Virus record (IMG/VR): IMGVR_UViG_2877269240_000007
DNA length: 62,425 bases
Strand: one strand, 5' to 3'
Origin: a virus
Taxonomy: Duplodnaviria > Heunggongvirae > Uroviricota > Caudoviricetes
The notes beneath the pieces were generated by a model, which saw only the letters and a list, made by a program, of their open reading frames with translations, was not told the origin of the DNA and searched no databases. Both the position numbers and the translations under genes were made by a program. Positions within the stretch are counted from its first letter, which is position 1. Every line of letters begins with the position of its first letter. Positions 7,738 through 8,570 of this stretch are shown here, in pieces.

Positions 7738-8292
7738 TTATTTTAAAGAAAGTAATTGTTCCACAGTCATATTTTTAATTGCGCCCCGGTTAACAAGAGT
7801 CCATCCCTGTTTTTCCAGATAAAACCGGAAAGTCTCCAGGGTACAGACCAGTGCGCCATCAGGAACGGTTTCGGTGAATTCGACATTGCCGAATTTGTCG
7901 AAGTGAACAACCAGAGTGCGACCATCACCCGGAATCATCTTGTCAGCAGGTGGGGTGTTATTCTGGCGCAGTTCGGCCTCCATGCGGTCGAACTCAGCAA
8001 TGTAGGCTTCCTTGAATGCGGCGGCTTTTTTGCCAGTGAAGCCCATCACCAGGAAAACGAAGCCGTTTTTGGTGATTTGGTACATTGGGCGTTTTTCGCC
8101 TTTGGCGTCGGTATAGGTGACGGGCTTAAAATTAAGCCGGTTAAACTCCGGCGAGCATTCGAGAGTTTCGATCTTCTGAATAACGTTTTTGTGCATTTTC
8201 CGGAAGAACTCCGCAACCGCAACAGACGTAGTGACAGCGCGACCATTTTCGATGGTTGCGTCAGGGTGAGAAAGGGTAAGGATAGTAGCCAT
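7738..8292 (-). CDS. Rha/AntA-family phage antirepressor-like protein (copy A)
   Basis: MATILTLSHPDATIENGRAVTTSVAVAEFF...YQITKNGFVFLVMGFTGKKAAAFKEAYIAEFDRME matches Rha/Ant N-terminal domain; longer ORF-track frame upstream judged non-coding. Confidence 0.7.
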   Translation of the reverse strand: MATILTLSHPDATIENGRAVTTSVAVAEFFRKMHKNVIQKIETLECSPEFNRLNFKPVTYTDAKGEKRPMYQITKNGFVFLVMGFTGKKAAAFKEAYIAEFDRMEAELRQNNTPPADKMIPGDGRTLVVHFDKFGNVEFTETVPDGALVCTLETFRFYLEKQGWTLVNRGAIKNMTVEQLLSLK

Positions 8293-8349
8293 GATGGCAG
8301 CCTCGATAGTCAGTTTAAATGACTCACCACCAGAGGTAGCAATCTCATG

Positions 8350-8428
8350 GGTGGTGAGACGCACAGGGTTGCTACAACCGGTGACTACCGAAACCGGCCA
8401 GCCTTGCGGCTGCCCTGCACGCCCCACC
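8350..8428 (-). ncRNA. candidate antisense/riboregulator hairpin upstream of rha (copy A)
   Basis: imperfect long hairpin GGTGGGGCGTGCAGGG...CCCTGTGCGTCTCACCACC; loop shoulder GTAGCAA complements ATTGCTAC boxes at 8501-8514 and 8335-8346. Confidence 0.4.
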
Positions 8429-8458
8429 ATAATCTGAATGTGGCTGTGCTTGACGCAT

Positions 8459-8481
8459 AAAAAAACCGCCTGAGCGCGGTT
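8459..8481 (-). terminator. intrinsic terminator of short leader transcript (copy A)
   Basis: AACCGCGCTCAGGCGGTT hairpin plus T7 on minus strand. Confidence 0.55.
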
Positions 8482-8541
8482 ATGCGCAGTAGTCATCGTC
8501 GGGGTAGCAATCCCGGCACCCGTTTTATGAGGTGCAGGTGC

Positions 8542-8570
8542 ACTATAATTCCACCCGTTCTGGTTTTCAA
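8542..8570 (-). promoter_or_regulatory. sigma70-like promoter for antirepressor leader (copy A)
   Basis: TTGAAA - 17 bp - TATAGT on minus strand. Confidence 0.45.

Follow-up and report, generated by a model that had tools for sequence, protein, structure and literature searches.

A 62,425-nucleotide viral sequence, referred to here as the window, was predicted to hold a riboregulator in two copies, each ahead of a gene labeled as an antirepressor and each with short cores exchanged so that base pairing is preserved. The locus raises the question of whether these elements form a functional RNA switch and to which kind of switch they belong. The two copies are designated copy A and copy B, and their parts are collected in Table 1.

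Two C4/IsrK-type RNA cassettes precede Rha-domain genes

The Rfam C4 model (RF01695, threshold 45) matches copy A with 75.7 bits and copy B with 74.8 bits, and the matches are full-length in both copies (model positions 1-87). The isrK model (RF01394, threshold 50) is matched with 61.5 and 58.1 bits, respectively. The c4-a1b1 model (RF03163) scores 18.9 bits on copy A, below its threshold of 46.7, and this result combined with the isrK match assigns the upstream part to the IsrK/seqA subtype. The isrK and C4 models also match P1 immI, P4, D6, Gifsy-1, and eight further phages. The order of shoulder box, loop box, C4, shoulder box, and loop box with the Shine-Dalgarno sequence was read directly in P1, P4, D6, and Gifsy-1; the names shoulder box and loop box are used throughout, and the letters a and b are not assigned to particular boxes. 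Judged by sequence, neither region is a new riboregulator; both belong, as ordinary members, to an RNA immunity family with a long record of study. The novelty that the original prediction implied does not hold, the C4/IsrK family having been described already, and copies A and B read as two differently keyed versions of the P1 c4/P4 CI/IsrK-type switch.

Table 1. Positions of the cassette parts in the window.
Feature	Copy	Position	Strand	Detail
Cassette	A	8570-8290	-	
Long nested frame, 282 aa	A	7738..8586	-	ATG 8586 preceded by AAAGGAAAGAG
Promoter, sigma-70-type, internal	A	8542..8570	-	TTGAAA 8570-8565, 17-nt spacer, TATAGT 8547-8542
IsrK/seqA-type leader RNA, 77 nt	A	8459..8535	-	Rfam isrK RF01394
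Upstream shoulder box ATTGCTAC	A	8504..8511	-	pairs with 8375-8369
Upstream loop box TGACTACTG	A	8487..8495	-	complementary to C4 hairpin-2 loop
Intrinsic terminator	A	8481-8464, then T run	-	terminator scan
C4-type antisense RNA, 88 nt	A	8347..8434	-	Rfam C4 RF01695
C4 hairpin-2 loop UUUCGGUAGUCA	A	8393-8382	-	pairs with 8495-8487 and 8312-8301
C4 shoulder GUAGCAA	A	8375-8369	-	complement of ATTGCTAC
Alternative hairpin	A	8323..8358	-	CUCACCACC (8358-8350) pairs with GGUGGUGAG (8331-8323)
Downstream shoulder box ATTGCTAC, target site	A	8336..8343	-	
Downstream loop box TGACTATCGAGG	A	8301..8312	-	complementary to C4 hairpin-2 loop
Cargo gene, intact Rha-domain regulator, 184 aa	A	7738..8292	-	Pfam Phage_pRha, E = 3e-31
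Cassette	B	26148-26428	+	
Promoter	B	26148..26176	+	TTGATT 26148-26153, 17-nt spacer, TACACT 26171-26176
IsrK-type leader RNA with terminator	B	26183..26259	+	Rfam isrK
Upstream shoulder box ATTGGCGT	B	26207-26214	+	
Upstream loop box TCAATATAG	B	26223-26231	+	pairs with C4 loop
C4-type RNA	B	26284..26371	+	Rfam C4
C4 hairpin-2 loop GUUCUAUGUUGA	B	26325-26336	+	pairs with 26223-26231 and 26406-26417
C4 shoulder ACGCCAA	B	26343-26349	+	
Downstream shoulder box ATTGGCGT	B	26375-26382	+	target region 26375..26417
Downstream loop box TCAACATAGGGG	B	26406-26417	+	Shine-Dalgarno GGGG inside, before ATG 26426
Cargo gene, Rha-domain protein	B	26426..26989	+	interrupted by in-frame TAG

The promoter, terminator, hairpin, and two boxes ascribed to copy A are all present in the sequence. 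The promoter agrees with the consensus at 10 of 12 positions, is the sole promoter-like site in a scan of 8200-8750, and falls within the long Ash-Rha frame; its position is kept as TTGATT-17-TACACT in copy B and the O121 modules. The leader RNA has two hairpins and the intrinsic terminator and bears an upstream copy of each box. Folding places the upstream shoulder box in the 8-nt loop of a hairpin with a CGGG/CCCG stem, and the upstream loop box can form 9 bp, one of them G-U, with the loop of C4 hairpin 2. C4 has a 17-bp closing stem that encloses two hairpins. What had been described simply as a hairpin is the 88-nt C4 RNA of each copy, and the sequence called its loop shoulder is unpaired in C4 and lies 3' of hairpin 2. 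The Shine-Dalgarno sequence of the cargo gene (GAGG, 8304-8301) is contained within the downstream loop box, 8 nt 5' of ATG 8292. The antirepressor label reflects family annotation of this gene, namely its Rha domain and the PHROGs category 'transcriptional regulator / anti-repressor'. The copy A locus has a 99.3% identical counterpart in one E. coli genome. The IsrK/seqA-type upstream RNA, the leader-long reading frame, and a nonsense codon in the copy B cargo were overlooked in the earlier reading.

The copy B promoter is identical in three O121 modules, and homology to the O121 prophage begins at 26145. The copy B cargo gene has a premature TAG at 26477-26479 (codon 18) where the intact homologue has CAG (Gln), and the O121 homologue reads ...IAIVDGQAVT... 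at the stop site. The copy B cargo is a pseudogene. Copy A lies within an IS-flanked remnant. Present-day function in this genome is uncertain because of these two circumstances.

Two sets of boxes covary with C4

The three-site match that drew attention to the locus is borne out: copy A has ATTGCTAC twice and GUAGCAA once, and copy B has ATTGGCGT and ACGCCAA at the same places. The copies align at 83% column identity with the differences concentrated in the boxes, in agreement with the claim that the cores are swapped and the rest is conserved. The 7-mer TTGCTAC is not rare in the window (6 matches versus 6.7 expected). However, a 175-nt stretch holds three copies of it, each correctly oriented, and the exchange of 5 nt has its match at every one of the three sites; the chance of this is about (1/4)^10 for the two partner sites. 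The proposal of the shoulder core as a specificity determinant is supported by the sequence, but a second co-varying set, the loop box on the ribosome-binding site, had been missed. The hairpin-2 loop (core CGGUAGUCA in copy A and CUAUGUUGA in copy B) fits one upstream box and one box over the Shine-Dalgarno sequence of the Rha gene. The specificity cores are GUAGC and CGGUAGUCA in copy A and ACGCC and CUAUGUUGA in copy B, and neither is shared.

Homologues were collected by a scaffold-only pattern scan that gave 15 specificity types from 94 viral contigs. Every C4 fits its own four boxes at fixed positions in all 15 types, and independent variation of boxes and loop was seen in none. Downstream of C4, 88% of the alignment cells are paired, with both partners altered in 12 of 19 pairs. 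The corresponding values upstream are 94% and 13 of 19, with the upstream shoulder pairing covarying at 7 of 7 pairs and paired in 100% of cells; slid controls gave 28-50% paired. The observed box-C4 match was equaled in 0 of 500 shuffles and the observed self-match was reached in 0 of 20000 permutations, counts that are not probabilities since the types share ancestry. Helix length is 9.3-9.9 for self and 4.9-5.4 for non-self combinations, and duplex energies are -9 to -15 kcal/mol for cognate versus -4 to -10 kcal/mol for non-cognate pairs. The copy A downstream loop box has -14.4 kcal/mol with its own loop and -6.2 kcal/mol with the copy B loop, and the copy B duplex energies are likewise cognate-specific. 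Within C4 itself, 99.8% of cells at structure pairs are paired and hairpin 1 covaries at 5 of 5 pairs; the closing stem and hairpin 2 were set by the search pattern and are uninformative for compensating changes. The homologue alignment confirms that the covariation is real and supports pairing between C4 and both box sets, upstream and downstream. Membership in Rfam C4, the P1 immI layout, and this covariation support the proposal of a functional RNA-RNA interaction with a swappable core like that of P1 and P7 c4.

Among the cassettes, the shoulder takes at least 5 different cores and the loop at least 17. The upstream box, a putative decoy, is systematically weaker through C-to-U changes. 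Co-resident or tandem cassettes differ, both in this window, which has two, and in an E. coli O121 prophage, which has three in a row. Outside the two cassettes, no other paired shoulder and loop targets of either C4 were found in the 62-kb window. A copy A box in the copy B spacer and a copy A loop matching the copy B start codon were considered as signs of cross-talk and set aside as inseparable from chance or shared ancestry.

An alternative hairpin and the C4 fold cannot coexist

The 3' strand of the C4 closing stem, CUCACCACC, is also one side of the alternative hairpin in Table 1, which places the downstream shoulder box in its loop. The alternative hairpin appears in the minimum free energy (MFE) fold, and it and the C4 fold exclude each other. 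Sixteen diverse family members have the hairpin at a corresponding position. In the covariation test, 92.6% of its cells are paired and 9 of 12 pairs changed on both sides, compared to 35-54% paired in slid controls. In the full copy A leader, the MFE structure contains the alternative hairpin and a cis pairing between the C4 loop and the Shine-Dalgarno box, whereas that of copy B keeps the C4 fold. Whole-leader MFE was not used to choose between structures because it disagrees between the copies.

A long reading frame runs through the RNA genes

The long frame of copy A spans the promoter, IsrK, the terminator, and C4 and continues into the Rha gene. Its N-terminal 107 residues match Pfam Phage_ASH (E = 8e-21), and PGAP annotates a 282-aa 'Rha family' CDS in the 99.3% identical locus. 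In-frame stops are absent from 33 of 35 distinct leaders, whose remaining frames hold 201 and 126 stops, and a frame of at least 100 codons is open in 13 of the 15 types. Neither window copy has a stop between the leader frame and the cargo start. The O121 long ORFs show translational coupling by an ATGA overlap with Shine-Dalgarno sequence GGGAGGTG, and in mEp460, Lys8385Vzw, and Ayreon the start of the long ORF and the stop of the preceding CDS overlap by 4 nt.

Relation to P4, P1, and Gifsy-1

The isrK and C4 models match seqA and CI of P4. Its two-box layout, with the loop box on the Shine-Dalgarno sequence, is identical to that of the window cassettes, and the junction to the regulated gene (AGGAGGCUGCCAUCAUGGCUAC) and the first codons (MATTLTPSHPEF versus MATILTLSHPDA) are near-identical. 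The P4 eta/kil region has, like the window, a long frame that begins 5' of the internal promoter and crosses the RNA genes in the frame of the regulated gene (the eta precedent is summarized in PMC10111431), and the window frame has amino-acid similarity to it. The alternative hairpin is present in P4 too, with compensating changes. P4 differs in being a satellite and not a lambdoid prophage, in its cargo, a 65-aa Kil in place of a Rha-domain regulator, and in its specificity cores.

Both the C4 and c4-a1b1 models match P1, whereas the window falls below the c4-a1b1 threshold. P1 (X17512, read directly) has TTGACAG and GTTAGTG upstream, a c4 with loop CACUAAC and shoulder CUGUCAA, and TTGACAG ... 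GTTAGTGAGG-ATG downstream. As in the window, a single promoter gives rise to both antisense and target, which share one strand. In P1, icd stands between c4 and ant, whereas the window cargo directly follows C4. The icd frame of P1 and D6 is closed just upstream, so these phages have no long Ash-type frame. Differences in specificity between P1 and P7 are said to underlie their heteroimmunity.

Gifsy-1 is matched by the isrK and C4 models, produces a short terminated RNA and a read-through mRNA like the window, and has alternative structures that involve the C4 closing stem. Its shoulder box is of the copy B type (UUGGCGU/ACGCCAA). Compensatory mutations validated the Gifsy-1 pairs G28:C162 and G31:C159 (PMC4825925, Table 1D), and these coincide exactly with this box. 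The Gifsy-1 C4 is 4 nt shorter, which shifts the frame so that it ends as a separate orf45, translationally coupled to the Gifsy-1 cargo; the window frame is fused to the cargo, and an orf45-like ORF stopping before the cargo is absent from both window copies. The cargo was rejected as an AnrP homologue (BLASTP E = 0.05 over 35 residues). In the published Gifsy-1 model IsrK is an activator, and the c4 framework is not invoked. The presence in lambdoid prophages of IsrK-C4 systems with homology to P4 seqA/CI had already been noted (PMC3632133), and C4 and isrK matches lie inside Bro-network genes (Phage_ASH, Phage_pRha), designated 'Bro' in PICI (PMC10111431). Neither publication lists specificity types or two-box covariation.

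Proposed mechanism and competing explanations

Each copy is very probably an RNA immunity cassette complete in itself, of the P1 c4/P4 CI/Gifsy-1 IsrK family, ahead of a Rha-domain regulator gene. The mechanism proposed here joins the observed family membership, complementarity, covariation, frame conservation, and alternative hairpin to processing, repression, a decoy role, and immunity, which we infer by analogy with experiments on P1, P4, and Gifsy-1. The cassette-internal promoter would initiate a transcript, and the majority of transcripts probably end at the intrinsic terminator to give the 77-nt IsrK-type RNA with one copy of each box. Read-through transcripts would hold the 88-nt C4, which is probably excised as a stable small RNA; in the P1 c4/P4 CI type, RNase P releases such an RNA of about 77 nt from the precursor. 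The hairpin-2 loop and shoulder of C4 would pair with the downstream boxes and cover the Shine-Dalgarno sequence, blocking cargo translation in cis and in trans, and this pairing may also cause premature termination. The cognate C4 is predicted to repress the cargo in trans and to define immunity specificity. The variable loop and shoulder cores would set that specificity; the cores differ between copies A and B, and as neither core is shared the two copies should not cross-react. The upstream boxes of the short RNA would bind these C4 segments in competition with the downstream boxes, acting as a decoy or activator, as in Gifsy-1, or as a site required for immunity, as in P4. Transcripts from an upstream promoter may be translated through the leader as the long Ash-Rha protein, and this translation would make them insensitive to RNA control, as in P4 eta. 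The two experimental precedents conflict over the direction of the upstream RNA's effect: IsrK activates in Gifsy-1, and seqA is needed for immunity in P4.

If the logic of Gifsy-1 were primary, the IsrK-type RNA would be a trans activator and the C4-like region mainly an inhibitory mRNA structure in cis, not a processed trans repressor. Over-expression of IsrK raises anrP translation >100-fold, and compensatory mutants back IsrK pairing with the C4-like region (PMC4825925). The shoulder box common to copy B and Gifsy-1, the cis pairing of the C4 loop in the copy A MFE structure, and the conserved alternative hairpin, by which the C4 fold is not the sole selected structure, point the same way. 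However, the downstream boxes covary with C4 equally strictly and cover the Shine-Dalgarno sequence, and an activator-only model gives them no role; IsrK cannot pair with them because they are identical to its own boxes. P1 c4 and P4 CI, moreover, reportedly act in trans as repressors. A stable processed species, STnc1160, is known in Salmonella, and the fused frame leaves the window without a separate orf45. We consider the Gifsy-1 logic unlikely to be primary, and it is compatible with the cassette model if IsrK is a decoy for C4.

A second alternative takes P4 as the guide, with C4-box pairing acting mainly through premature transcription termination of the operon and not through a simple block of ribosome binding. 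P4 immunity operates through termination after kil translation is lost (PMC10111431). P4 is also the system closest to the cassette in sequence, in the ...AGGAGGCUGCCAUCAUGGCUAC junction, the kil-like first codons (MATxLTxSHP), and the eta-like long frame. On the other hand, the loop box overlaps the Shine-Dalgarno sequence in every member, so translation would be hit first with termination as a consequence and not an alternative, and a Rho-dependent terminator is not identifiable here from sequence. Termination is doubtful as the main mode of action, about as much so as the Gifsy-1 logic.

A purely protein-coding region, with the box repeats arising from protein or repeat constraint on the Ash domain of an Ash-Rha protein, is highly improbable. 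The translated leader does match Phage_ASH, the long CDS is annotated by PGAP and by phage annotators, and nearly all leaders lack stops in frame. Box-C4 covariation contradicts coding as the sole explanation: reverse-complement covariation that links three distant sites cannot arise from protein constraint, no part of the translation varies more than the boxes, and the region has a promoter, an intrinsic terminator, and two structured Rfam RNAs. The coding and RNA readings are probably both true at once, as in P4 eta. Less probable still is chance resemblance or a functionless by-product of local duplication, which has in its favor that the 7-mer is not rare in the window and is refuted by matched boxes at fixed positions in 15 types, the permutation result, and the collapse of pairing in slid controls.

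Implications for prophage regulation and annotation

Cassettes of this kind stand 5' of Rha-type regulators, including those of Shiga-toxin phages. Sequence matches to the 1-kb copy A region, comprising the cassette and the Rha gene, occur in 4531 of 5426 complete E. coli genomes, which is not a count of complete cassettes, and the median is 2 places per genome. Current annotation treats the leader as protein: the PGAP CDS runs across two RNA genes as well as a promoter and a terminator, and the Pfam Phage_ASH family is built on the translation of this RNA-bearing leader. Orthogonal two-box specificities could help predict cross-regulation between prophages and could supply parts for engineered RNA control.

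A broader reading is offered tentatively, at somewhat less than even likelihood. The cassettes would make up an extensive natural collection of RNA locks, orthogonal to one another and built from two independently variable boxes, and differing co-resident cassettes, the weakened decoy, the alternative hairpin, and the Ash frame may form a tuned three-state switch that is silent, decoy-relieved, or translated-through. The Ash domain of the Rha/Ash proteins of Stx phages is listed as being of unknown function (PMC8951638), and a three-state switch, if real, would explain this domain in Shiga-toxin phages.

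Each cassette encodes a C4 RNA and an IsrK RNA

The promoter, terminator, two boxes, shoulder and ORF listed in the original prediction were all located on the minus strand between 8570 and 8290 (copy A). The predicted swap of a 5-nt core relative to the second cassette (copy B, plus strand, 26148-26428) was matched in the boxes and the shoulder, the single-stranded stretch 3′ of C4 hairpin 2, at all sites. The aligned copies have 83% column identity and differ mostly in the boxes. The copy A promoter-like site is the sole one in 8200-8750. The 7-mer by itself is not rare (6 in the window versus 6.7 expected), and what counts is that three oriented copies lie together and that the 5-nt swap is matched.

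An Rfam scan returned two families above threshold in both copies, C4 antisense RNA (RF01695, threshold 45) and IsrK (RF01394, threshold 50). The C4 RNA accounts for the predicted "hairpin", and the predicted "terminator" is the end of an IsrK/seqA-type short RNA. The prediction missed a second specificity pair: in each copy, the loop of C4 hairpin 2, 12 nt long, complements two more boxes, one upstream and one downstream. The Shine-Dalgarno sequence, 8 nt 5′ of the start codon, lies within the downstream loop box, and the cassette order is therefore shoulder box, loop box, terminator, C4 (loop, shoulder), shoulder box, loop box with Shine-Dalgarno, ATG.

Features of the two cassettes in the window
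Copy	Feature	Sequence	Position	Strand	Score or match
A	Promoter-like site	TTGAAA-17-TATAGT	8570-8542	minus	10/12 consensus positions
A	IsrK (RF01394)		8535-8459	minus	61.5 bits
A	Shoulder boxes	ATTGCTAC	8511-8504 and 8343-8336	minus	
A	Upstream loop box	TGACTACTG	8495-8487	minus	
A	Intrinsic terminator		8481-8464, then T run	minus	
A	C4 antisense RNA (RF01695)		8434-8347	minus	75.7 bits
A	C4 hairpin-2 loop	UUUCGGUAGUCA	8393-8382	minus	
A	Shoulder	GTAGCAA	8375-8369	minus	
A	Downstream loop box	TGACTATCGAGG	8312-8301	minus	
A	ORF (cargo)		8292-7738	minus	
B	IsrK (RF01394)		26183-26259	plus	58.1 bits
B	Shoulder boxes	ATTGGCGT	26207-26214 and 26375-26382	plus	
B	Upstream loop box	TCAATATAG	26223-26231	plus	
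B	C4 antisense RNA (RF01695)		26284-26371	plus	74.8 bits
B	C4 hairpin-2 loop	GUUCUAUGUUGA	26325-26336	plus	
B	Shoulder	ACGCCAA	26343-26349	plus	
B	Downstream loop box	TCAACATAGGGG	26406-26417	plus	

The P1 immI region is matched by the C4 plus c4-a1b1 models, and the C4 and IsrK models match P4 (as CI RNA and seqA, respectively), D6, Gifsy-1 and eight more phages of Escherichia, Klebsiella and Vibrio. The box/C4 order read directly in the P1, P4, D6 and Gifsy-1 sequences is identical to that of the window cassettes.

Boxes covary with their own C4

For the covariation test called for with the prediction, IMG/VR was scanned with a pattern that fixed the C4 stems and left the loop, shoulder and all flanks free. 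This recovered 94 loci with 35 distinct leaders and 15 combinations of loop and shoulder. In 15/15 types, the four boxes match the type's own C4 and lie at constant positions (-91/-88, -76/-73, +21 and about +51). Helix length is 9.3-9.9 for self and 4.9-5.4 for non-self pairs, and the observed value was reached in 0/20000 permutations. In the 15-sequence alignment, 88% of cells are paired downstream (12/19 pairs altered on both sides) and 94% upstream (13/19). These values were reached in 0/500 shuffles, except for the count of further standard pair types in the upstream pairing (1/500); given the relatedness of the sequences, the shuffle counts cannot be read as probabilities. The slid controls, in which moving the partner by 1-3 columns lowers pairing to 28-50%, and the number of distinct types point the same way. 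An E. coli O121 prophage (L101, 1673-3845) carries three tandem IsrK-C4-Rha cassettes with three different shoulder/loop specificities, including two additional shoulder cores, GGAAC/GUUCC and UGCAC/GUGCA, both matched.

Both regulation and structure are regained in the compensatory Gifsy-1 mutants G28A/C162U and G31A/C159U (PMC4825925). Mapped on the Gifsy-1 sequence, G28/C162 and G31/C159 are two base pairs of UUGGCGU/ACGCCAA, a shoulder pairing of copy B's type. Together with family membership and covariation, these mutants support the predicted functional RNA-RNA interaction.

At positions that are C in the downstream loop box, the upstream one is often U (cassette alignment A2, columns 53-64 versus 244-255; for example, 26223-26231 versus 26406-26414 in copy B). 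G-U replaces G-C with the C4 loop in 10 cells upstream versus 3 downstream, so the upstream box is usually the weaker partner. The copy A box ATTGCTAC also occurs in the copy B spacer just 5′ of C4 (26271-26278); the spacers of four further GGCGT-type cassettes in the alignment carry it too, and GCTAC-type cassettes have ACAGCCAC there. This may reflect cross-talk or merely shared ancestry. The copy B start-codon region (A)TGACTACT (26427-26434) complements GGUAGUCA of the copy A C4 loop (predicted -9.9 kcal/mol), a match that may be chance.

An alternative hairpin excludes the C4 fold

The 3′ strand of the copy A C4 closing stem (8358-8350) can pair instead with GGUGGUGAG (8331-8323), forming a hairpin (8323-8358, minus strand) whose loop holds the downstream shoulder box and which cannot coexist with the C4 fold. 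It occupies the same position and covaries in 16/16 diverse members, with strands GCUAUCGCC/GGCGAUAGC in P4 and GCUACCGC/GCGGUAGC in D6. Pairing is 92.6%, with 9/12 pairs altered on both sides, versus 35-54% in slid controls. The hairpin probably has to do with the "structure A/B" switch that has been reported in Gifsy-1.

A long reading frame crosses the cassette

In 13/15 types, the cargo frame continues upstream without a stop for 100 codons or more. An in-frame stop is absent from 33/35 distinct leaders; the other two frames have 201 and 126 stops. With the copy A cargo, a Rha-domain regulator gene, the long frame spans 7738-8586 (minus strand); it is also found in a close E. coli locus (L100, 7114-7962) and in the O121 prophage (L101, 1673-3845). 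In the PGAP annotation, a 282-aa "Rha family" protein starts at the ATG equivalent to window 8586, and this CDS spans the promoter, IsrK, terminator and C4. The leader translation is Pfam Phage_ASH; the same DNA is described by one Pfam and two Rfam families. For Stx-phage Rha/Ash proteins, the function of the Ash domain is still given as unknown (PMC8951638). The O121 long ORFs have an ATGA overlap with the preceding stop codon and a strong Shine-Dalgarno sequence, GGGAGGTG, before them, and the long ORF of mEp460, Lys8385Vzw and Ayreon begins 4 nt short of where the upstream CDS ends. This arrangement matches that of P4, in which the eta frame crosses seqA and CI and continues into kil, and the P4 frame is similar in amino acids (MVxxAGQPxGWPVS ... 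EAAIMATxLTxSHP). P4 logic is summarized in PMC10111431, which also reports C4/isrK matches in PICI Bro genes.

The first ~ten codons, MATxLTxSHP (window 8292-8263), are common to unrelated cargos (Rha proteins, P4 Kil and D6 Icd); therefore, the boundary of the mobile cassette appears to lie within the cargo ORF.

Genomic context

Copy A sits in a prophage remnant between IS600-like (6095-7224) and IS2-like (9089-10362) elements; in a close E. coli relative that prophage adjoins ybhA. The copy A module and the downstream YdaE-family gene (7440-7721) are leftovers of a degraded prophage. Copy B lies at the start of a replication operon (O-like, DnaC-like, DnaB), and its homology to the O121 prophage starts exactly at the cassette promoter. 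In its cargo, codon 18 (26477-26479) is an in-frame TAG, in place of the CAG of the intact O121 homologue; the riboregulator is intact and the cargo is a pseudogene. Directly upstream (25480-26117, minus strand), a HigB-like toxin (Pfam Gp49/DUF891) and HTH antitoxin pair occupies the place of the O121 Ash/Rha genes.

Elsewhere in the window, Rfam matches sok antitoxin RNA (hok/sok; 15641-15816) and the ALIL frameshift pseudoknot of an IS3-family element (36323-36439). Two four-tRNA clusters (20691-20997 and 31513-31820), in which 3/4 genes score identically, suggest two related lambdoid late regions.

Discussion

In the most likely mechanism, C4 would pair through its loop and shoulder with both downstream boxes and block the cargo ribosome-binding site, the upstream short RNA would compete for the same C4 segments, and translation of the long frame on upstream transcripts would bypass RNA control. 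The analysis establishes the complementarity, covariation, family membership and frame conservation; RNA processing, cargo repression, a decoy function and the bypass are inferred from P1, P4 and Gifsy-1. IsrK and C4 have been described as homologues of P4 seqA and CI, with such systems present in lambdoid prophages (PMC3632133), so this kind of element was already known. The predicted covariation is confirmed and its interpretation supported in a known system. Predicted duplex energies are cognate-specific, and copies A and B should therefore be heteroimmune. The copy A specificity, GCUAC/GUAGC, is one further natural variant of this element.
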